Part shown: one piece after another, positions 1 through 48,485 of the stretch
Layout: every line of letters starts with the position of its first letter
How positions within the stretch are numbered: position 1 is the stretch's first letter
IMG/VR virus record: IMGVR_UViG_3300028048_000011
Span: 1 to 48,485 of that record
Strand: one strand, 5' to 3'
Length of the DNA stretch: 48,485 nt
From: a virus
Translations under genes and position numbers: made by a program
The notes under the pieces: model-generated
Databases searched by the model: none
Told to the model about the DNA's origin: nothing
What the model saw: the letters and a program-made list of their open reading frames with translations, nothing else

Positions 1-127
1 CATGGAGAGCGGAGTCAAGGGATACTTCGAGTTTATAAGCGTCCAGAACTACACAAACCTCAAAGGAGTGACAGATCCGAAAGCATACCTGCAGAACATC
101 AAGGCGGACGGATATGCCACTTCTCTC
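1..127. repeat. Terminal direct repeat, identical to 48359-48485 (assembly overlap of a circular or circularly permuted genome)
   Basis: The first 127 nt (catggagagcggagtcaaggg...ccacttctctc) recur exactly as the last 127 nt. The reading frame of ORF 2..1135 continues in phase from the ORF starting at 48081. Confidence 0.95.
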
Positions 128-1372: not shown

Positions 1373-2938
1373 TCAGAGCCTTAAAAAAAGAGTTTCACCA
1401 TCCCATGTACACTCCTGAACTACTTCTCTCACTATTGCATTCTTCTCATCTGCAGACAGACCGGAAAGAGACTTCATCATCCCGGCGATCTCCTGCGACC
1501 GCTCGGCAGAGGTCTTTTCTGCAGAAGCAGACCTTCTCGATTCAGACTTCGCAATTTCAATCTCCCTGTTCACAGCAGCCAGAGACAGATCCTCGGTCTC
1601 GATCTGGGCGATGATATACTTCGATGCAGCGGATCCTTCTGCGAGGCTCTCAGTGAGTCTGCTGATACGAGATCGGATAGCCGATGCCTTCCGTTCGAGA
1701 TCCCGAAGAGCAGCGCCATCGTCCTTTTTCTCTTCCACACTGGAATACTTCCTGATCACGGACGGATCCGCTTCAATGTCGGAGAAGATCGCAAGGACCC
1801 GATCATCAAGTTTTGAGCATTTTATCATCGACATATCACAGGCTTCGACTCCCTGCCTCATTCTCTTCAGGCAGTAGTAAGAAGAGCAGACCCTTCCATG
1901 AGCCAACTTCTTCCTGGATACCTGCATCAGACCTCCGCACTTGGCGCAGCGCAGTGTACCCTTCAGGAGAGGAATATCATACTTTTGCTTCTTCTCGAAT
2001 GTGTTCTGACGGAAACGAGCCTGAACAGCGAGCCACTTTTCTGCAGGAACGAACGGAGCATGAACGCCTTCGCACACTACCCATTCAGAATGCGGCTGCA
2101 CCTGATGCTTTTTATTCTTCTCGGTAGATCTACCGTAGATCATCACTCCACATTTTCCATCCCATGACTCACGCTCATCCGCCATCTGGCATCCCAAAGC
2201 GCTATAGAAATCCCATACCTTAGGAGTCGCAGGAACGCAGTACGGCATCGTCAGGATCTTGTAGAGCTGCGTAGTAGAGAAGAAGGCTCCATTCACTGTC
2301 CGTCTTCCCTGGCGCTTGAACTCCGTCTCCATTGCCTGCAGAGAGTATCCGCCTTCGAGAAACTCATCATAGATGCCAAGGACATATTCTGCAGCATCCG
2401 GAACCGGAACGATGGTGCAGTGTTTCTTCCCATTGACCTCGATCCGCTCCCTCTTATATCCGTATGGCGGATTGCCACCAGTCCACAGACCCTTCTTCGC
2501 AAGACCGATCATGTTATCGGTGACACGGGCGGCGATCGTTTCCCTCTCCATCTGGGCGAACACCATCGTGACATACATCATGGCTTTTCCGATCGGAGTA
2601 GCGGTATCGATGTTCTCTTTTATGGATATGAACATGACTCCATGCTCTTCCAGGGAAGAGTATATGTTTGCGAAGTCCTTCACATCACGGGAGAGACGAT
2701 CAAGCTGATACACAACCAGAGCATCCACGATCCCGTCAGAGATATCTGCGAGCAGTCGCTTCAGACCTGGGCGGTTCGTATTGGCTCCGGTGAAACCTTC
2801 ATCCTGATAGCATTCGAAGGACTCCACATCATCAGGGAACTTGAAATCTACAAACTCCCTACACATCCTCTGCTGATTGTCTACAGAGTCGGATTTATCT
2901 GAATAGATGGACTTTCGTCCATAGGTCGCAAAACGCAT
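1373..2938 (-). CDS. int: Large serine recombinase (integrase)
   Basis: The N-terminus is a resolvase-type catalytic domain (MRFATYGRKSIYSDKSDSVDNQ, VVYQLDRLSRD). It is followed by a recombinase domain, a zinc ribbon (CAKCGG...YYCLKR) and a C-terminal coiled coil. I chose the start at ATG 2938 (RBS AAAGGTGG) rather than the track start 3043. Confidence 0.9.
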   Translation of the reverse strand: MRFATYGRKSIYSDKSDSVDNQQRMCREFVDFKFPDDVESFECYQDEGFTGANTNRPGLKRLLADISDGIVDALVVYQLDRLSRDVKDFANIYSSLEEHGVMFISIKENIDTATPIGKAMMYVTMVFAQMERETIAARVTDNMIGLAKKGLWTGGNPPYGYKRERIEVNGKKHCTIVPVPDAAEYVLGIYDEFLEGGYSLQAMETEFKRQGRRTVNGAFFSTTQLYKILTMPYCVPATPKVWDFYSALGCQMADERESWDGKCGVMIYGRSTEKNKKHQVQPHSEWVVCEGVHAPFVPAEKWLAVQARFRQNTFEKKQKYDIPLLKGTLRCAKCGGLMQVSRKKLAHGRVCSSYYCLKRMRQGVEACDMSMIKCSKLDDRVLAIFSDIEADPSVIRKYSSVEEKKDDGAALRDLERKASAIRSRISRLTESLAEGSAASKYIIAQIETEDLSLAAVNREIEIAKSESRRSASAEKTSAERSQEIAGMMKSLSGLSADEKNAIVREVVQECTWDGETLFLRL

Positions 2939-3035
2939 ATAAAACCACCTTTCTACTTGTAGAATCGCCGGAAAGATGGTAGAATAATCGCATGGGTTGT
3001 GATTTTCTTTCGGCAATTCCGTAAGGGAATCCAAG

Positions 3036-3070
3036 GCCGTCACCTTCGCAGAGTGGCGGCTTTTTATTTT
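3036..3070 (+). terminator. Hairpin plus T-run, oriented as a plus-strand terminator at the 3' end of the minus-strand lysogeny operon
   Basis: An 8-bp stem (GCCGTCAC / GTGGCGGC, one G-U pair) is followed by TTTTTATTTT. It could block late or antisense read-through into the repressor operon. The hairpin may also act on the minus-strand transcript. Confidence 0.4.
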
Positions 3071-3621
3071 GCTTCAAACAGTACACGGGATCCTTCTTTT
3101 CTTCTCGTGACTTTTCCTTTCTTTTCAAGATCTTTCATAATACTTTCATAGGAGCGAACTTCATCTTCAGAGAGGATCTTCTTCAGATCTACCTGACTAA
3201 TCGCTCCTGCCTTCTTCACTTCGGAGAGTAGCTTCGACTTTATAGATCGGATCCTCTTCTGATCCGCCTGCCTCTCATTCCATGCATCCAGATATTCCTG
3301 ATATTCATTCGCCATGAACGAATCGAAGTCCTTCTGCACCTGATACCGGACAGCATAGCCATCCTTCTTCAGATAGTCCTCTCCGCCATTCTGCAGACAG
3401 AATTCCCGGAACTCATCGAACAGAGCCAGGGAGCGCCGGAAGGCTTCAACGGTCCGCTCCGGATTGTCATAATATTCGACAGACTGGATCCTCTCGATCC
3501 ACTTTTCTACTTCTGTCTCATGCGCTTCGTAGAACTTCCAGTAGTTATCAATGCCGCCATAAACAGGATGAGGATCCTGATCAGGCTTCTTTTTGAACAG
3601 TCCGAACAATCCCATAGTCAT
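3064..3621 (-). CDS. Hypothetical protein co-transcribed with the repressor. The C-terminal ~50 aa look winged-helix-like
   Basis: This 185-aa ORF has its ATG overlapping the repressor stop (ATGA). I recognise no catalytic motif. The C-terminus reads AISQVDLKKILSEDEVRSYESIMKDLEKKGKVTRRKEG. Confidence 0.7.
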   Translation of the reverse strand: MTMGLFGLFKKKPDQDPHPVYGGIDNYWKFYEAHETEVEKWIERIQSVEYYDNPERTVEAFRRSLALFDEFREFCLQNGGEDYLKKDGYAVRYQVQKDFDSFMANEYQEYLDAWNERQADQKRIRSIKSKLLSEVKKAGAISQVDLKKILSEDEVRSYESIMKDLEKKGKVTRRKEGSRVLFEAK

Positions 3622-3953
3622 TCTCCTTTCATTTCATTCTCGGCATTCTGGGTCTCCAGTAATGCCTTCGCATAAGCCTCTAACCTCTTCGTCCGTTCCG
3701 GATCGAGCTTTCTATAGCAATCTATCAAAGAAGACTCTCCGCCTGGCATCGATGCATCCCATCCCATCAGATAAGACTCTGACACATTCAGGAACGAAGC
3801 GATCGCTTCGATCTTATTCGATGGAATATTTGTGACGATACCGTTCTCATATTTATAGATCGTCTGCTTCGTAGTATTCGCAGCTTTGGCAAGCTCATCC
3901 TGAGTGGCACCTTTTGCTTCTCTTGCGTCTTTTATCCTCTTTCCTATCGTCAT
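3618..3953 (-). CDS. XRE-family HTH repressor (cI-like)
   Basis: The sequence is MTIGKRIKDAREAKGATQDELAKAANTTKQTIYKYENG. It is divergent from a Cro-like gene. The RBS is AAGGGGG. Confidence 0.9.
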   Translation of the reverse strand: MTIGKRIKDAREAKGATQDELAKAANTTKQTIYKYENGIVTNIPSNKIEAIASFLNVSESYLMGWDASMPGGESSLIDCYRKLDPERTKRLEAYAKALLETQNAENEMKGE

Positions 3954-3996
3954 GTCGCTCGCCCCCTTTTATTTGTAGGAACCCTGTGTATCTCCA

Positions 3997-4024
3997 ATTA
4001 TATTACAAAAAATAATATTTTCAA
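3997..4024 (-). promoter_or_regulatory. Candidate sigma-A promoter for the repressor operon
   Basis: On the minus strand: TTGAAA (4024-4019), a 16-nt spacer, then TATAAT (4002-3997). Confidence 0.55.
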
Positions 4025-4031
4025 GTAAAAA

Positions 4032-4048
4032 ATGACTTGACAGGTTAC
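4032..4048. promoter_or_regulatory. Operator-like site 1 (ATGACTTGACAGGTTAC)
   Basis: It matches site 2 at 14 of 17 positions and overlaps the -35 of the rightward promoter. Confidence 0.5.
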
Positions 4049-4064
4049 AAAAATGTAATATAAT
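4037..4064 (+). promoter_or_regulatory. Candidate sigma-A promoter for the early (lytic) operon
   Basis: TTGACA (4037-4042), a 16-nt spacer, then TATAAT (4059-4064). The -35 element is embedded in operator copy 1. Confidence 0.6.
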
Positions 4065-4076
4065 GGTCATTGAGCA

Positions 4077-4093
4077 GTAACTTGTCAGGTTAC
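4077..4093. promoter_or_regulatory. Operator-like site 2 (GTAACTTGTCAGGTTAC)
   Basis: The half-sites are a perfect GTAAC-N7-GTTAC inverted repeat. The site lies between the -10 element and the RBS of the Cro-like gene. Confidence 0.55.
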
Positions 4094-4116
4094 CGGAAGC
4101 AGAAAGGAGTACAAAG

Positions 4117-4317
4117 ATGATCAGAACTGATGAATTAAGAGGAATCATCGCAAAGAATGGAAAATCACAGAGAGATGTGGCTACAGCCATCGGAGTGACT
4201 GAAAAGACCTTCTATCTGAAAATGAAGAAGGGTGTTTTCGGCAGCGATGAGATCGAAAAAATGATCGATTTTCTTCAGATCGAGAATCCTGTGGATATTT
4301 TTTTTGCCAAACAGTAA
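4117..4317 (+). CDS. Small HTH protein, Cro/antirepressor-like
   Basis: This 66-aa protein reads GKSQRDVATAIGVTEKTFYLKMKKG. It has the RBS AAAGGAG and is divergent from the repressor. Confidence 0.8.
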   Translation: MIRTDELRGIIAKNGKSQRDVATAIGVTEKTFYLKMKKGVFGSDEIEKMIDFLQIENPVDIFFAKQ

Positions 4318-4330
4318 CTTGTGAAGTTAC
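4314..4330. promoter_or_regulatory. Operator-like site 3 (GTAACTTGTGAAGTTAC)
   Basis: It has the same GTAAC-N7-GTTAC architecture and overlaps the stop codon of the Cro-like gene. Confidence 0.45.
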
Positions 4331-4357
4331 AAAACAGACGAGATCAATCAGCGGAAA

Positions 4358-4375
4358 ATAACCTTCAGAAGTTAC
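4358..4375. promoter_or_regulatory. Degenerate operator-like site 4 (ATAAC-N8-GTTAC)
   Basis: The half-sites are related, but the spacer is one nt longer. Confidence 0.25.
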
Positions 4376-4409
4376 GGCTCGACCGAAGAAGAAAGGAGAA
4401 GCACAACCC

Positions 4410-4598
4410 ATGGAAGAATTAGAAAAAGTCAAATTAAGCGATGCAACAGATTATCTCATTGAAGAGCTTATGAACGATTACAACCTGAACAAGACTACCG
4501 CTCGAAACCTTCTGGCAAACATTCTCCTTCGGAACCTCGTGATCGAGGAAATCAAAAGCATGGCGGACTACATAACCGGACGGGAGGATAAGGAATGA
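4410..4598 (+). CDS. Hypothetical protein (62 aa)
   Basis: The upstream sequence is RBS GAAAGGAG, then CACAACCC, then ATG. Confidence 0.6.
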   Translation: MEELEKVKLSDATDYLIEELMNDYNLNKTTARNLLANILLRNLVIEEIKSMADYITGREDKE

Positions 4599-4747
4599 AG
4601 CAACCAAAGAAACCAACCTATGAGCAGAAGAAATTGATCAGCAAGAACAAACTGGACTGGAAAGAGTGGATGGTAAAGGACGAGGACAACATATCGATCG
4701 CCCTGATCCACAAGCAGACCGGAAAGATCAAAGTGATATGGAAGTAG
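4595..4747 (+). CDS. Small protein (50 aa), DUF6906-like
   Basis: The sequence is MKQPKKPTYEQKKLISKNKLDWKEWMVKDEDNISIALIHKQTGKIKVIWK. It is not in the ORF track because it is under 60 aa. The ATGA overlaps the upstream stop. The family call is from memory of similar small Firmicutes phage/ICE proteins. Confidence 0.45.
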   Translation: MKQPKKPTYEQKKLISKNKLDWKEWMVKDEDNISIALIHKQTGKIKVIWK

Positions 4748-4756
4748 GTGAAGCAG

Positions 4757-4939
4757 ATGAACGAGATCAAAGTGGAGGTGATGTTCACAGATGGATACCA
4801 GAAGCGATACACGGAGGCAGTGGCGAAGGCGTATCAGAAAAAGAAGCATAGAGAAATGGTGGCGGCAGGGAAAGTCAGCAATCGCCGGTACGGTGGTGAT
4901 CGGAATCATCATAACGCTCCTGGTCATCATACCGACTGA
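4757..4939 (+). CDS. N-terminal fragment of the transglycosylase gene, in a different frame (see findings)
   Basis: MNEIKVEVMFTDGYQKRYTEAVAKAYQKKK looks protein-like and has an RBS (AGGTGA). After about 4845 its translation degenerates, while the +1 frame becomes protein-like. Confidence 0.4.
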   Translation: MNEIKVEVMFTDGYQKRYTEAVAKAYQKKKHREMVAAGKVSNRRYGGDRNHHNAPGHHTD

Positions 4940-5714: not shown

Positions 5715-6063
5715 TAACGGAATCATCTTCGTCAAGGCCTCGAAGGAAGAAGAGGCGGTCATCAAGACCTGGCGAATGATGAAGAAAGACAAAGACAAAG
5801 GATACTGGTACGGCGAGATCACAAGACCGCTCCTGGAGAACCTGCAGAGGAACGGCGGACTGATACCTCCAGCAAAAGCAATCCTGAAAGAGATGCTGAC
5901 AGTTCAGGCGGCGGTGGACGCAGAGAGGCTGAAGCCGGACAAAGAGATAAAGCCTCGGTACAAGTACCCGGTCAAGGCGAAGTTATTCACACATCAGACC
6001 AGGGCGGCAAACATGGCGCTGATGGTATTCGGGATCCTTCCGCCGGATGGGAGGAAGGAATGA
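5698..6063 (+). CDS. 121-aa protein whose C-terminus resembles the Q-motif N-terminus of an SNF2/SF2 helicase (split-gene N-fragment)
   Basis: The C-terminus is YKYPVKAKLFTHQTRAANMALMVFGI, matching the L-x-x-HQ-x2-A-x4-L pattern that normally precedes Walker A in phage SNF2 helicases. The RBS is AAGGAG. Confidence 0.6.
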   Translation: MQQKIDNGIIFVKASKEEEAVIKTWRMMKKDKDKGYWYGEITRPLLENLQRNGGLIPPAKAILKEMLTVQAAVDAERLKPDKEIKPRYKYPVKAKLFTHQTRAANMALMVFGILPPDGRKE

Positions 6064-43444: not shown

Positions 43445-43999
43445 ATGGCTGGAGTATTCAACCAAGCCGTCCTGACTACCAAGGGCATAGCGCTCCTGGC
43501 GAAAGCACAGGCCGGGAGATGCACTATCAATCTCACCAAGGCGGTATCGGGCAACGGCACCTACACGGCAGGCGAAGATCTGGCGAGTAGGACTGCACTC
43601 AAAAACAAGATGCAGGAATTCTCAATCAACACAGTGATCGTGCAGAACAAGACGAACGTCTATGTGAAATTCATCATCACGAACTACCCGGACGCACAAC
43701 ACGCTCTCGCAACAGGATACTACGTGAGGGAGATCGGCTTGTACGCTACGGACCCTGACGAAGGAGAAATTCTGTACGCTATCGCTACAGCGGTTCAGGA
43801 TCAGTGGGATTATATGCCTTCATACAATAATCTCCTTCCGTCAACCATTACGATCGAGATGCTGACAGAGGTCGCAAACGCATCCACGGTCACAATCGAA
43901 GCACCCAACAAAATGTACCTCTACGATGACAACACCGGGGATAAATACGTTCTCGGAGTAGAGGACGGAATCTTATACTTTGAGGAGGTAGCAGAATGA
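43445..43999 (+). CDS. Tail fibre protein, tail-collar (DUF3751-like) N-terminal type
   Basis: The sequence contains FNQAVLTTKGIALLAKAQAG...REIGLYATDPDEGEILYAIATA. Confidence 0.7.
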   Translation: MAGVFNQAVLTTKGIALLAKAQAGRCTINLTKAVSGNGTYTAGEDLASRTALKNKMQEFSINTVIVQNKTNVYVKFIITNYPDAQHALATGYYVREIGLYATDPDEGEILYAIATAVQDQWDYMPSYNNLLPSTITIEMLTEVANASTVTIEAPNKMYLYDDNTGDKYVLGVEDGILYFEEVAE

Positions 44000-45240
44000 G
44001 CAGAGTATATGTAGCAGACAAGGAGACGCTCGATAAAATCTACGACATCGTCTCCGCAGACGGCGTGTACGGCTTTATCGAGCATTGCGCCACACTCGCT
44101 CCCGACAAGAGGATCGAGTACATCGGCAAGAACGTAGACTACACACCCATCAGCGTAACCATGGGCGGAGGCTTCTCCCTCGGTTCCTGGGGCAACTTCT
44201 CCGTCATTGCCAACAATAAGCCTTGGATGGTAAAGAATGACGGAACACCCGACTACGAACTTCTGGAGTCAGACTACACGAAGAAGGCGGTAGACGGAAC
44301 AACAGCATCCGATGTGGCGAACGCATCCTACGCAGGCGGAGCGTTCTCGTGGATCCAGAAGATCTACAAGAAGGAGTACATGGTAGGCGATGACCGCTAC
44401 GTTCTCTTTTCGGAGACAAAGAAGGAAGGCTTCGAGGCGGTAGGCTTCATCGATAGCAGCGACAAGGAACTCGAAGGCGTATGGCTGCCTATGTTCTACA
44501 ACACGGACGGAACAACGAAGGCAACCTGCATCGCTTCAGGACATCCTGAATACAGTAACACCACAGCGAACCAGAAGACAGCGATCGATGCATTCGGATC
44601 CAGAGCGAAGTTCCTCGGCGGTCCCATCATCAATACCCTCGTAGATCTTCTGATCATGTGGGCAAAGACAACAGACCTGCAGACAGCATACGGCAAAGGA
44701 AACTGCAATGGCTATGTGAACGAATCTCCTTATTACGGAGTATTGGAAAACGCAGTCGTGAACGGCGGACAGTTCTACGGTACTTCAGATGGAACGAGCC
44801 TGAACAAGATCCTGCACTCCATCGTTCTCGGTAGCTATCAGCAGTGGATGAGAGACCCTTATACCATCTGCGTAAGCGGCAAGCTGAAGGTTTCCACCAA
44901 CTACGCATATGCGCTTGACGCTTCAGGATACCTCGACACAGGCATCAACTATGACGAAGTAGGAGATACCTCGTGGCATTACCCGGAGAAGTACAAGCCT
45001 GTTCCCGGTTTCGGAGCGGCTCCTTCTCTTCCGCCTTACAAAGGCTCTACTGCAACAGGCGGATGCGATGGCTTTATCGTCAACGCAGGCATCACGGCGT
45101 TCGCTCTACGGTTCGGTGATTGCTTCACTGGCCTCATTGTTGGGGTTCGTGCTTTGAATTTGCACCGCACTGCTACGTATGCGGCCTGGTACATCGGCTC
45201 GGCCGTTCTTCTCCTTCCACCTGTCGGCGTAGCCGCATAG
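43996..45240 (+). CDS. Distal tail fibre / receptor-binding protein, the DGR target (variable region in the last ~45 codons)
   Basis: It is the last tail gene. Its 3' end carries the VR, which is homologous to the downstream TR. Confidence 0.85.
   Translation: MSRVYVADKETLDKIYDIVSADGVYGFIEHCATLAPDKRIEYIGKNVDYTPISVTMGGGFSLGSWGNFSVIANNKPWMVKNDGTPDYELLESDYTKKAVDGTTASDVANASYAGGAFSWIQKIYKKEYMVGDDRYVLFSETKKEGFEAVGFIDSSDKELEGVWLPMFYNTDGTTKATCIASGHPEYSNTTANQKTAIDAFGSRAKFLGGPIINTLVDLLIMWAKTTDLQTAYGKGNCNGYVNESPYYGVLENAVVNGGQFYGTSDGTSLNKILHSIVLGSYQQWMRDPYTICVSGKLKVSTNYAYALDASGYLDTGINYDEVGDTSWHYPEKYKPVPGFGAAPSLPPYKGSTATGGCDGFIVNAGITAFALRFGDCFTGLIVGVRALNLHRTATYAAWYIGSAVLLLPPVGVAA
45101..45204 (+). repeat. 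DGR variable region (VR)
   Basis: This 104-bp segment aligns to TR at an offset of 248 nt. It has 13 mismatches, all opposite TR adenines. It encodes DCFTGLIVGVRALNLHRTATYAAWYIGSA. Confidence 0.95.
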
Positions 45241-45243
45241 GGG

Positions 45244-45265
45244 GTCTGGGGGTCTTCCCCCAGAC
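45244..45265 (+). promoter_or_regulatory. Perfect 9-bp GC-rich hairpin with a 4-nt loop, just downstream of VR and the stop codon
   Basis: The stem is GTCTGGGGG-tctt-CCCCCAGAC. No U-tract follows. Confidence 0.6.
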
Positions 45266-45348
45266 TAAACGAGAAGCAGCAATAGGCTATCTTTTGTAAC
45301 GGATTTATAAAATTTAACAGGGGGAAGGACTGCCGACACCAGGGGCGG

Positions 45349-45452
45349 TCGCTCTACGGTTCGGTAATTGCAACAATGGCCTCAATGATGGGGTTCGTGC
45401 TTTGAATTTGAACAACACTGCTACGAATGCGAACTGGAACATCGGCTCGGCC
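45349..45452 (+). repeat. DGR template region (TR)
   Basis: It is non-coding and contains 25 adenines, 13 of which differ in VR. Read in the VR frame, it gives AAT/AAC codons (N C N N G L N D ... N N T A T N A N W N). Confidence 0.95.
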
Positions 45453-45647
45453 TGTTATTCTATCAATTTTGGAACATTAACCAAATGGCAGTCCTTAACC
45501 TACACCTCTGACGGATGAAAAGCCGTTTACTCGCCATTATTGGAAAGATGAGTGGAAATGAATCCGATACAGGGCAGGCAGTAAAGCGGTCGCACCTGCT
45601 GTCTGTAGGAGATAGAAGAAAAAATATCACCATAGGAGTAATGCAGA

Positions 45648-46850
45648 ATGCGCAGGAAAGAAGCAGAAGAGGCTATCGACAGCGTCTCGCATTCAGAGGG
45701 CGCAAAGCAGTACAAGTATCTGTATCGCAAAATGCTCGATGAGCAGACCGTGAGGAAAGCCTATAAGAAACTTCGAAAAGGAAAGACGAAGAGGAAAGAA
45801 ATAATCTACATAGACGCTCACCTCGATGAAGAGGTGGCGAAGATGATCGAAATGATCAAGAATACGAGGCCGGGCGAAGTCGAACACCCGGAACTCGCAT
45901 TCGTGCCATGCAAGAGGACTCCACGGTACATCTATGAACATGGAAAGACCAGGCGCATCTTTATGCCGGAGATCCACGAGCAATGGCTACACCACATCAT
46001 CGTCCTCATACTGGAGCCGATCATAACGGCAACCGCATACCCGTACTCGTGCGGATCATTCCCAAAGCGAGGCGCTCACTACGGCAAGCGGCAGATGGAG
46101 CGATGGATAAGAAGCGGAGTAGGAATCAGGAACTTCGCAAAAATCGACATCCGTCATTTTTATGACTCAATTCGGATCCGCATCCTGATGAGAGAACTGC
46201 GGATCAGGATAAAGGATGACTGGTTTCTCTACATCGTGGAGTTATGCTTCAGAGGGATAAGCAAGGGAATACCGCTCGGCTTTTACATCAGCCAGTGGCT
46301 CGCAAACTACCTGCTCGAACCTCTCGACAGGCTCATGACAGAGAAACTGGGAATCAAGAAGTACATCAGATACATGGATGATATGACATTTTTCGCAGAG
46401 AGCAAGAAGAAACTGCACCAGGCAATAGTCGCAATCCGGCAGTTCCTGGGGCGGCGTTTCCGCTTGAAGCTGAAGAGAAACTACCAGGTCTGCAAGTTCG
46501 ACTTCGTAAAGAAGACCGGGCAGAGGATAGGAAGAGTCATAGATTTCATGGGGTTCGTCTTTTTCAGAGAAAAGACCCTGATCCGAAAGAGCATCATGCT
46601 ATCGGCAACCAGACTGGCGAAGAAGATGAGCCGGAACAAAGAAAAACTGCGTGGATATTTCCATAAGCACATCTCGGCAATGATATCGTACATGGGATGG
46701 TTCACCTGCACGGACACCTACCACTGCTACGAAGAGAATATCAAGCCGTTCGTGAAAATCGGAAACCTGAAGCGCATCACATCAAAACTGCAAAGGAGGC
46801 AGAACCATCATGAAAGCATGGAAAGAAGAAAGATGCTCCGAGCGGCCTGA
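45648..46850 (+). CDS. DGR reverse transcriptase
   Basis: It has RYMDDMTFF (YMDD), GIPLGFYISQWLANYLL (the SQxxAN signature of DGR RTs) and IDIRHFYDSI. It lies about 195 nt downstream of TR. Confidence 0.9.
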   Translation: MRRKEAEEAIDSVSHSEGAKQYKYLYRKMLDEQTVRKAYKKLRKGKTKRKEIIYIDAHLDEEVAKMIEMIKNTRPGEVEHPELAFVPCKRTPRYIYEHGKTRRIFMPEIHEQWLHHIIVLILEPIITATAYPYSCGSFPKRGAHYGKRQMERWIRSGVGIRNFAKIDIRHFYDSIRIRILMRELRIRIKDDWFLYIVELCFRGISKGIPLGFYISQWLANYLLEPLDRLMTEKLGIKKYIRYMDDMTFFAESKKKLHQAIVAIRQFLGRRFRLKLKRNYQVCKFDFVKKTGQRIGRVIDFMGFVFFREKTLIRKSIMLSATRLAKKMSRNKEKLRGYFHKHISAMISYMGWFTCTDTYHCYEENIKPFVKIGNLKRITSKLQRRQNHHESMERRKMLRAA

Positions 46851-47079
46851 AGAACTTCAGGACATCGGCGGCGGACTCTACATGGAGAGACGCAACATTC
46901 GTGAAGTTCATCACGAGGCAGACGAAACGGCAGGGGTGGAGGAGTATACCGAATTCGTCTGCGAGAGCCGTGAGATCGAGCATAGCGAGTACCAGATGTT
47001 CAAGAGCATCGAAGCAATCGACACGCAGGATGCCATAGACGCATACACCGAGCAGCTGTTAGAGGAAGGAGCGATCTAA
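46810..47079 (+). CDS. Hypothetical acidic protein (89 aa), in the XkdW-like position
   Basis: The RBS is AAGGAGG. It overlaps the RT 3' end by 41 nt and precedes the XkdX-like gene. Confidence 0.55.
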   Translation: MKAWKEERCSERPEELQDIGGGLYMERRNIREVHHEADETAGVEEYTEFVCESREIEHSEYQMFKSIEAIDTQDAIDAYTEQLLEEGAI

Positions 47080-47082
47080 ACT

Positions 47083-47220
47083 ATGAGAACATTAGTACAG
47101 AGCCTGAAGAGGCTATACCAGAAGGGCAAGGTCACCATCGAAAAACTCCAGAGCATGGTGGAGGCAGGCACTATCACCCAGGAAGAATTCGACTATATCA
47201 CGGAGGGTTCCGTGGGATGA
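47083..47220 (+). CDS. XkdX-family small protein (45 aa)
   Basis: The sequence is MRTLVQSLKRLYQKGKVTIEKLQSMVEAGTITQEEFDYITEGSVG. It is below the ORF-track cut-off. Confidence 0.65.
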   Translation: MRTLVQSLKRLYQKGKVTIEKLQSMVEAGTITQEEFDYITEGSVG

Positions 47221-48080: not shown

Positions 48081-48485
48081 ATGACGAAGGCAGAGTTCAT
48101 AGAGAAGATCGCAGCGCTTATCATCAAACACGCACCGACCTATGGAATAGCCGTACACTCTCCAATCATCGCCCAAGCGGTACTGGAGAGTGCATACGGC
48201 ACCTCGGAACTTGCGAAGAATGCCAATAACTACTTCGGACTCAAATACCGCAAAGGAAGATGTCCGAGCGCTTCAGGTATTTACAAGAAGGTCGGCAGCG
48301 AACAGAACCCGGACGGCTCATACATCAGCGAGATGATGGAATGGTGCCGGTTCCCGGACATGGAGAGCGGAGTCAAGGGATACTTCGAGTTTATAAGCGT
48401 CCAGAACTACACAAACCTCAAAGGAGTGACAGATCCGAAAGCATACCTGCAGAACATCAAGGCGGACGGATATGCCACTTCTCTC
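48081..48485 (+). CDS. Endolysin, N-terminal part: GH73 glucosaminidase domain (continues at nt 128 of the window)
   Basis: The sequence contains AQAVLESAYGTSELAKNANNYFGLKY. The RBS is AAGGGGTGA. The ORF runs off the window end, in phase with ORF 2..1135. Confidence 0.85.
   Translation, partial: MTKAEFIEKIAALIIKHAPTYGIAVHSPIIAQAVLESAYGTSELAKNANNYFGLKYRKGRCPSASGIYKKVGSEQNPDGSYISEMMEWCRFPDMESGVKGYFEFISVQNYTNLKGVTDPKAYLQNIKADGYATSL
48359..48485. repeat. Terminal direct repeat (copy of 1-127)
   Basis: It is identical to the first 127 nt of the window. Confidence 0.95.

Follow-up and report, generated by a model that had tools for sequence, protein, structure and literature searches.

The tail-fibre region of a 48,485-nucleotide viral DNA (positions 1 to 48,485 of IMG/VR record IMGVR_UViG_3300028048_000011; this whole stretch is referred to as the window) carries what we hold with high confidence to be an active diversity-generating retroelement (DGR), in which a target gene ending in a variable repeat (VR), a template repeat (TR) plus a reverse transcriptase (RT) form an accessory-less target-TR-RT architecture that diversifies the tip of a tail fibre, its activity being read from a comparison of assemblies. 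A DGR diversifying the distal tail-fibre C-terminus had been proposed in a preliminary description made from the letters alone, and sequence, structural, comparative and population evidence now agree on it. This evidence comprises the anatomy of the TR and VR, the type of the RT, the fold of the target as modeled, RNA structures identified by covariation and an adenine-restricted turnover of the VR. From the target gene to the XkdX gene, the parts of the locus described below lie on the plus strand.

Adenine-specific mismatches between template and variable repeats

A repeat finder returned a 109-nt direct repeat (45096-45204 and 45344-45452; 87% identity, spacing 248), of which the upstream copy, the VR, occupies codons 368-403 of the 414 codons of the target gene (core 45101-45204), and the downstream copy, the TR, is non-coding, with a 104-nt core (45349-45452) that contains 25 adenines. 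Gapless comparison of the cores at offset 248 gave 13 mismatches, every one of them opposite an A in the TR (45366, 45372, 45373, 45376, 45385, 45388, 45411, 45414, 45415, 45426, 45432, 45433 and 45438; hypergeometric P-value = 4.3e-10 for 13/13 mismatches on A given 25 A in 104 nt). The hand-aligned list of the preliminary description was reproduced base for base, including its statement that no non-A position differs within 45101-45204/45349-45452. The repeat itself begins 5 nt earlier than had been described (45096/45344 instead of 45101/45349), and this extension at the 5′ edge holds the sole non-A mismatch (VR T45100 vs TR G45348), a change private to the window, which has F at residue 369 where the 14 remaining members of the target's protein cluster (see below) have V.

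Read in the VR frame, 12 of the mismatches fall in AAT/AAC codons, the design that had been pointed out, and the remaining one lies in GAT. TR adenines occupy codon position 1 in 13 cases, position 2 in 11 and position 3 in one, and none of 199 codon variants generated by A substitution is a stop codon. Both repeats close, again as described earlier, with a shared GC-rich 3′ end, CATCGGCTCGGCC, that resembles a sequence for initiation of mutagenic homing (IMH), after which they diverge (VR GTTCTTCTCC vs TR TGTTATTCTA). The VR-TR gap of 139 nt is non-coding, and no further TR-like copy was found on either strand of the window. An exact 127-nt terminal direct repeat (window positions 1-127 and 48359-48485) indicates that the window is a circularly closed assembly of ~48,358 bp; together with the lack of a further TR-like copy, this indicates a single DGR target in the genome.

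Turnover of the variable repeat in sister genomes and across the family

Close relatives were collected via the protein cluster of the target; a megablast of the cassette against GenBank phages and an exact IMG/VR search with a TR in which N replaced every A each gave zero matches. The 90%-identity cluster of the target holds 31 sequences, 15 members of which were aligned. In these 15 proteins, columns with at least four residue types number 13, every one of them a VR codon holding a TR adenine, and the ten AAY codons average an entropy of 2.52 bits, compared to 0.076 over the other 399 columns.

The A-site-restricted heterogeneity of the VR that the preliminary description anticipated is present among near-identical genomes, at the level of assemblies and not of reads. 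Five such sister genomes, from other samples and independently assembled (L267-L271), were compared to the window. The TR was identical (0/104 differences), as were the VR-TR gap (0/143-144, with a 1-nt gap in one sister) and the 117 nt of the RNA element RT-4 described below (0/117), with 0-1/78 differences in the remaining spacer between TR and RT; the target outside the VR differed at 10-14/1105 positions and the RT gene at 9-19/1203. The VR, by contrast in scale, differed at 16-19/104 positions, and 15/16, 19/19 and 16/17 of these differences fell at TR-A positions. The VRs of L267-L269 and L271 additionally show a low level of non-A differences, such as T to G. An apparent 130-nt insertion splitting the RT of L269 (4925-5062) was rejected as a scaffolding artefact, since it contains a run of N.

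The same pattern extends through the wider family, for which we assembled 197 loci, namely 195 related loci from three collections, the window and Faecalibacterium phage FP_Epona (NC_047910), the best match in a protein search of GenBank phages. Of the 153 loci in which 650 nt or more precede the RT, 137 yielded a TR/VR pair without gaps. Across 130 distinct pairs, mismatches by TR base numbered 1705 at A, 132 at T, 32 at C and 27 at G (1705/1896 at A), and 53% of TR adenines differed in the VR (to G in 774 cases, T in 472 and C in 459). Family loci with identical flanks (0/400 differences upstream, 0/1170 downstream) carry VRs that differ at 9-14 A sites. Furthermore, a lineage-specific change in the window's TR (CTA vs ATT at TR positions 10-12) has its counterpart in the VR of the window, which indicates TR-to-VR information flow after divergence. 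These comparisons demonstrate A-restricted VR turnover in natural populations of the window's lineage. Many metagenomic contigs of relatives in IMG/VR (L281, L282, L284, L288, L290 and L296) end in or just past the fibre C-terminus or VR, as expected if VR heterogeneity breaks assemblies.

A DGR-type reverse transcriptase

The RT (45648-46850; 400 aa, isoelectric point (pI) 10.1) matches Pfam RVT_1 (E 8e-16), and its ORF is intact with all catalytic motifs. Both motifs cited in the preliminary description for an RT at 45648, YMDD and SQxxAN, are present (RYMDDM and SQWLAN), and its assignment to the DGR type rather than to the group II or retron type holds. The RT carries LGFYISQ, matching the [I/V/L]GxxxSQ that stands in place of QGxxxSP as the DGR-RT signature (PMC7826257). 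The best PDB sequence match is 8ub7, a 328-aa “Reverse transcriptase”, along with nine related entries (E 6e-16); over the motif region the window reads GIPLGFYISQWLAN and 8ub7 reads GIPIGSLTSQLFAN (IGSLTSQ), whereas group II RTs in the same search read G(T)PQGGxLSPLLAN, that is, PQGxxxSP. From its length, and given a cryo-EM series of the bRT of Bordetella phage BPP-1, we take 8ub7 to be this bRT. This identity is inessential because a direct comparison with BPP-1 Brt from the phage record is independent of it and gave 26% identity over 307 residues (E 3e-21). In alignment, R102 of the window's RT corresponds to bRT R74, and a leucine to bRT I181; both bRT residues promote adenine mutagenesis (PMC7826257).

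The target is a distal tail-fibre protein with a predicted C-type-lectin-type tip

The target (43996-45240, 414 aa) is annotated as a distal tail-fibre or receptor-binding protein from its match to phrog_5302 “tail protein” (E 5e-75) and its predicted fold; searches of Pfam and of PDB sequences returned zero matches. An AlphaFold2 (AF2) model built with 47 homologues reached a mean predicted local distance difference test (pLDDT) of 85.6. The top three PDB fold matches in Foldseek were chains of TaqVP (5vf4; E 1.8e-8 to 9e-8, probability 1.0), the DGR variable protein of Thermus aquaticus, followed by weak matches to five Mtd entries of BPP-1 (1yu0-1yu4). The model thus supports a C-type-lectin-type variable-protein fold for the target tip, in line with the C-type-lectin or formylglycine-generating-enzyme (FGE) fold that the preliminary description suggested looking for in the fibre C-terminus.

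Directly upstream lies a 184-aa tail-collar fibre ORF (43445-43999), whose stop codon overlaps the target start by 4 nt (ATGA). The 548-position profile phrog_5302 spans both ORFs (profile positions 4-124 and 129-546), which suggests that the two are fused in some other phages.

Conserved RNA structures around the template repeat

The interval between TR and RT contains the RNA element RT-4 (Rfam RF03025; 45501-45617), detected by cmscan at 120.2 bits against a gathering threshold of 73.5 (E 1e-21) over 118/118 model positions, and the only Rfam family in the window. It recurs at the same place in 15/15 RT-bearing relatives tested, FP_Epona included, and is absent from an RT-less relative (L265). 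RNAalifold analysis of a 42-sequence alignment revealed compensatory changes in 18 of its 28 predicted pairs. RT-4 was originally left unassigned among 19 motifs near RT genes, with a possible role in group II introns, retrons or DGRs suggested for it, and RT-10 alone was tied to a DGR, that of BPP-1 (Weinberg et al. 2017, PMC5737381). A full-text literature search turned up no later assignment of RT-4, and a corresponding search on FP_Epona returned no mention of RT-4 or of the helix described next. We conclude that RT-4 is the TR-to-RT spacer RNA of the DGR clade typified by FP_Epona (Epona-type), and that, together with a helix bracketing the TR, it belongs to a larger fold, of which it makes up only the 3′ portion.

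This helix pairs GGGGGAAGGACUGCC (45320-45334), upstream of the TR, with GGCAGUCCUUAACCU (45487-45501), which abuts the 5′ end of RT-4. A minimum-free-energy (MFE) fold of 45300-45650 contained a perfect 10-bp pairing of AAGGACUGCC upstream with GGCAGUCCUU downstream of the TR. Among 78 distinct family members, duplexfold predictions between the sequences upstream and downstream of the TR averaged -28.7 kcal/mol vs -19.1 for shuffles (mean z -2.8; z < -2 in 82% of members). Covariation was evaluated in an alignment, anchored blindly and free of gaps, that comprised 51 distinct sequences (15 pairs, 765 cells). In this alignment 85% of cells were paired, whereas shuffles reached 67% and sliding the register by 1-3 columns left 46-55%; compensatory changes occurred in 11/15 pairs, with 153 doubly changed cells vs 50 in shuffles, and the covariation score was 0.534 vs 0.214, with 0/500 shuffles as high. 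These counts are conservative, since ~8 sequences lying 3 nt out of register were kept in. In most family members, as in the window (9 nt), the 5′ strand lies ~8-9 nt before the TR homology and the 3′ strand abuts RT-4.

A comparable arrangement is known from BPP-1, where the cPRT Stop duplex joins sequence upstream of the TR to spacer sequence just 3′ of the priming adenosine, is needed for complementary DNA (cDNA) synthesis and marks the point in front of which synthesis ends; such duplexes have been surveyed only in Avd-bearing DGRs (Handa et al., bioRxiv 10.1101/2023.10.23.563531). By analogy, the bracketing helix may be functionally equivalent to the cPRT Stop. Two invariant adenosines (45484-45485) sit 1-2 nt before its 3′ strand, and this position makes A45484/A45485 a candidate priming nucleotide.

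A45441 is mutagenized in sister genomes, so cDNA synthesis must start 3′ of it, within or beyond CGGCTCGGCC. For this reason, and because the loci L036 and L052 change the TR side without compensation, we rejected as a primer:template duplex the only TR:spacer pairing that recurred in predictions, AUCGG (45441-45445) with CCGAU plus CUG with CAG. In the linker between TR and helix (45453-45486), the short motifs TTCTATC, GGAA, AACC and AAA are conserved across the family; no covarying partner was found for them, and by-eye pairing of the AAA before the helix 3′ strand with the post-TR UUCUAUC followed no consistent rule.

Downstream of the VR, a GC-rich hairpin or cruciform candidate (45244-45265; 9-bp stem GTCTGGGGG/CCCCCAGAC, 4-nt loop TCTT) begins 4 nt past the target stop codon and 40 nt past the end of VR/TR homology. 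Of 78 distinct VR-TR gaps in the family, ~25 contain a G5-YYYT-C5 hairpin whose outer stem shows compensatory changes, and in some other family members a GC-rich stem carries a GTA/GTAA loop. The conserved target-recognition hairpin of DGRs has a 7-10-bp GC stem and a 4-nt GRNA loop and lies 4-34 bp from the VR (Guo et al. 2011, PMC3240598); the window's hairpin is a candidate for this element, like it in stem and loop size and unlike it in loop sequence and distance. It was rejected as a typical intrinsic terminator, as a T-run is absent.

A small acidic ORF overlapping the RT gene

The RT gene overlaps at its 3′ end, by 41 nt, an ORF encoding an acidic 89-aa protein (orf89; 46810-47079, pI 4.3), which we treat as a candidate accessory or fibre-associated protein. 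Of 188 RT loci with enough downstream sequence, 186 have a homologue, which overlaps the RT by 41-65 nt in all but a few. The protein matches phrog_20201 (E 2e-22) and belongs to a family of 79 clusters with a pI of 4.3 +/- 0.1. Zero matches were found in Pfam or NCBIfam at E <= 0.01 or among PDB sequences at E <= 10. In its AF2 model (pLDDT 87.8), a beta-sheet precedes a C-terminal helix of 29 residues. Searched against PDB folds, in a library whose inclusion of XkdW is unconfirmed, the model found no match (best E 0.33), and against BFVD it matched only uncharacterized phage proteins, among them proteins of crAss-like phages, cr55_1 included.

The preliminary description had placed XkdW/XkdX-like genes after the RT. 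The second of these is confirmed, as a 45-aa XkdX-family protein is encoded at 47083-47220 (Pfam PF09693, 34.3 bits vs 23.5, E 2.3e-8). The first is unsupported: orf89 shares with XkdW its position only, having no Pfam, NCBIfam, PDB sequence or fold match, the Pfam result weighing more here than the fold comparison. Identification of orf89 as Avd was likewise rejected, given a beta-sheet plus helix in place of a four-helix bundle and a nil profile comparison with BPP-1 Avd, as was identification as CH1, a small acidic accessory protein of 160-169 aa from Bacteroides (Wu et al. 2018, PMC5758913), on grounds of length (89 vs 160-169 aa) and host range. No ORF lies between VR and TR, nor was an HRDC, MSL or CH1 accessory gene found.

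That orf89 might nonetheless be a functional replacement of Avd, a new DGR accessory protein and not a fibre or lysis gene, strikes us as unlikely, though it has points in its favor. Avd is absent from the locus, the overlap with the RT is kept in nearly all of the 186/188 loci, and a clear homologue (E 3e-14) also follows an RT only 32% identical to that of the window on the phage contig L279. Look-alikes also occur in crAss-like phages. In cr55_1 (NC_055869, L273), positions 2938-4851 hold a DGR laid out as VR, TR, RT and small ORF, in which the TR lies 141 nt downstream from the VR and the repeats show 15-19 A and 0 non-A mismatches per 50-nt window; no Rfam RNA family was detected in its spacer. 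The 111-aa product of its small ORF, which overlaps the RT 3′ end and has a similar predicted fold, begins SERPEMIQKLDNNSYAFNYNIEEV, resembling SERPEELQDIGGGLYMERRNIREV of orf89, and shares an N-terminal ERPExxxxLxxxxYxxxxNI with the RT-overlapping small ORF of crAss-like cr7_1. Against such a role, the sequence link between orf89 and the crAss-like proteins is marginal (hhalign E 6e-4, probability 29%), no such small ORF follows the RT in cr60_1, and in Butyrivibrio phage Arawn and crAssphage LMMB the ORF after the RT is non-overlapping and without a match to the orf89 profile. Moreover, orf89 is acidic, unlike the nucleic-acid-binding Avd, and it remains intact beside a frozen fibre gene in all seven RT-less derivatives described below, which fits a fibre-associated role, for example that of an assembly factor in the XkdW position, and suggests a role independent of the DGR.

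Loss of the TR-RT unit and the case for present activity

Among 253 locus records with both the fibre C-terminus and orf89, nine records from seven contigs lack the RT (L263, L264/L297, L266, L299, L231, L260 and L265/L280), with orf89 following the fibre gene after 70-234 nt. Five of these contigs keep 19-27 codons of the RT 3′ end, one keeps two larger fragments and one keeps none; the remnants cover residues 378-400, 374-400, or 295-352 plus 368-396. At least three or four independent types of deletion account for these loci, each of which has a frozen VR. RT 3′ remnants in front of orf89 show repeated loss of a resident TR-RT and not to insertion. Of the earlier suggestion that the TR-RT unit behaves as an inserted module, separability therefore stands and insertion does not, as most RT-less relatives retain an RT 3′ remnant.

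These derivatives prove that loss happens in the family, and the locus could accordingly be viewed as a decayed relic in which the TR/VR pattern records past activity and turnover is over, a view to which the single non-A mismatch at the VR edge (position 45100) would also lend itself. We consider this very improbable: the RT is undamaged, and in the five sisters the TR, RT-4 and helix are 100% conserved while every VR differs at A sites, that of the window being distinct from each. The reading that makes the RT that of a group II intron or of a retron, and the 104-nt repeat an unrelated duplication, deserves practically no credence, for although the best NCBIfam match is a group II RT/maturase model (TIGR04416), followed by Drt3a and retron St85, and the PDB scores of the putative bRT entry and of a group II RT are close, all three NCBIfam matches are far under their cut-offs (99 vs 300, 54 vs 200 and 52 vs 235 bits), the motif is LGxxxSQ and not QGxxxSP, Rfam matches in the whole window were limited to RT-4, with neither a group II intron nor a retron RNA among them, and plain duplication cannot explain either 13/13 mismatches at A or A-restricted population variation.

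Several observations count against an active, accessory-less DGR. The closeness of the PDB scores amounts to 56 bits for a group II RT (E 3e-14) against 62 for 8ub7, so that the motif has to serve as the diagnostic. A supported primer:template duplex was sought in TR and spacer, and the priming site was not located. The post-VR hairpin is undetectable in about half of the family, and its loop in the window, TCTT, is pyrimidine and departs from the GRNA consensus; in BPP-1, a CTTT loop abolished function (PMC3240598). None of 43 small ORFs in the genome has an Avd-like PF05635-type match. To our knowledge, Avd is essential in the only DGR that has been dissected biochemically.

Genomic setting

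The DGR sits in the complete 48.4-kb genome of an Eponavirus-like myophage of gut Clostridia. P2/PBSX-like tail genes (tube FII, GpU, protein X, baseplate V/W/J/I), together with its repressors, fit a temperate contractile-tailed phage. The genome also codes for a single-stranded DNA-binding protein (SSB), a Lar-type restriction-alleviation protein, a DUF3850/ASCH-like protein and helix-turn-helix (HTH) repressors, and a 470-aa endolysin ORF starting at 48081 spans the circular junction. The XkdX gene marks the start of the lysis-proximal module and lies outside the DGR. RTs nearest to that of the window (89-91% identical) are found on metagenomic contigs, and genomic relatives occur mostly in gut Clostridia of mouse, rabbit, goat and human, Lachnospiraceae among them. 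Between 44900 and 47300, a sigma-70 promoter scan returned zero promoters, and terminator-like matches did not exceed shuffle expectation. A 75-aa ORF overlapping RT-4 (45515-45742) was taken as spurious, having zero family matches.

Relation to known systems and proposed mechanism

DGRs of the Epona genus have been reported with TR and VR, a target of the FGE/Mtd superfamily and no Avd homologue (Cornuault et al. 2018, PMC5883640). The window is distinct from the phages of that study, and the DGR of FP_Epona is the closest described system. Gene order is the same in both: a P2-I-like baseplate protein, a 184-aa tail-collar fibre, a ~415-aa target, a non-coding TR gap and the RT are followed by a ~87-aa ORF overlapping the RT end, XkdX and lysis genes. 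The TR/VR pair of FP_Epona likewise has 13/13 mismatches at A, RT-4 is present and Avd absent. The two differ in that their RTs are only 65% identical, with no nucleotide similarity found by megablast, and in that the host is Faecalibacterium for FP_Epona, whereas relatives of the window lie in genomes of Lachnospiraceae and Clostridia. Furthermore, FP_Epona alone has an extra ~30-nt GC-rich hairpin, GCACTGCGCC...GGGCGCAG, between the helix 3′ strand and RT-4 (L001 ~5800-5855).

With BPP-1 the window shares A-specific TR-to-VR transfer into the C-terminal C-type-lectin-fold (CLec-fold) tip of a tail fibre, an RT with [I/V/L]GxxxSQ and an arginine equivalent to R74, a duplex of upstream-of-TR sequence with the spacer, and a GC-rich 8-9-bp hairpin with a 4-nt loop after the VR. 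The TR-RT interval is structured in both, as Rfam Phage_DGR (RF03022) in BPP-1 and as RT-4 in the window. BPP-1 (mtd-avd-TR-brt) contains avd, whereas the window has none and its VR-TR gap is short (139 nt); the BPP-1 RT has 328 aa compared to 400 aa, at 26% identity; the BPP-1 hairpin has a GAAA loop and directly follows the VR, as opposed to TCTT at 40 nt; and the window's target has no detectable sequence similarity to Mtd. In gene content the window, with target, TR and RT on one strand and no avd, HRDC, MSL or CH1, belongs to Architecture A, a TR-RT core with no accessory gene that makes up 29% of DGRs and for which Avd-independent mutagenic retrohoming was already inferred (Wu et al. 2018, PMC5758913). 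Because Architecture A is defined by gene content only, the conserved RNA elements and the RT-overlapping ORF fall outside that description.

We propose that a transcript of ~45320-45647 would fold such that the TR forms a loop closed by the 15-bp helix (45320-45334 with 45487-45501), with RT-4 (45501-45617) directly after this helix. The RT would bind this folded RNA and copy the TR into cDNA from 3′ of A45441, in the GC-rich CGGCTCGGCC end, synthesis proceeding towards the bracketing helix with misincorporation at template adenines. Replacement of VR 45096-45204 by this cDNA in the fibre gene would randomize ~13 codons (ten AAY plus GAT, ATC and ACT), never to a stop codon, on the presumed ligand-binding face of the C-type-lectin-like domain. 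Under this scheme priming would probably occur in cis from the spacer RNA, the helix would act as a stop or positioning element, and directionality would follow from the divergence of the sequences past their shared GC-rich end. The hairpin past the target stop codon may also have a role, and the process would presumably be independent of any Avd-like protein. A further possibility, which we advance tentatively, is that Epona-type DGRs are mechanistically distinct and Avd-independent, a scaffold of helix and RT-4 replacing the positioning of the template by Avd, maybe with the longer RT and/or the RT-overlapping acidic protein as an accessory family common to Clostridial myophages and crAss-like phages.

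A tail-fibre DGR in a gut phage is in itself ordinary, as DGRs abound in intestinal phages and a description of the closest named relative dates from 2018; Epona-type accessory-less phage DGRs targeting an Mtd/TaqVP-like fibre tip were thus already known. What is new here is incremental and consists of the RT-4 assignment, the covarying helix in a system without Avd, the RT-overlapping ORF with its crAss-like look-alikes and the recurrent deletion of the cassette. The RT-overlapping small ORF is a testable accessory candidate, and a compact ~2.9 kb target-TR-RT unit needing no Avd would suit engineered targeted mutagenesis. For the biology of the family, the orphan Rfam RNA RT-4 gains a function, and a covarying duplex that brackets the TR is now documented in Avd-less DGRs as well. 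With >250 locus records, 130 distinct TR/VR pairs and sister genomes caught in live turnover, the family offers a natural dataset for the poorly understood DGRs that lack Avd.

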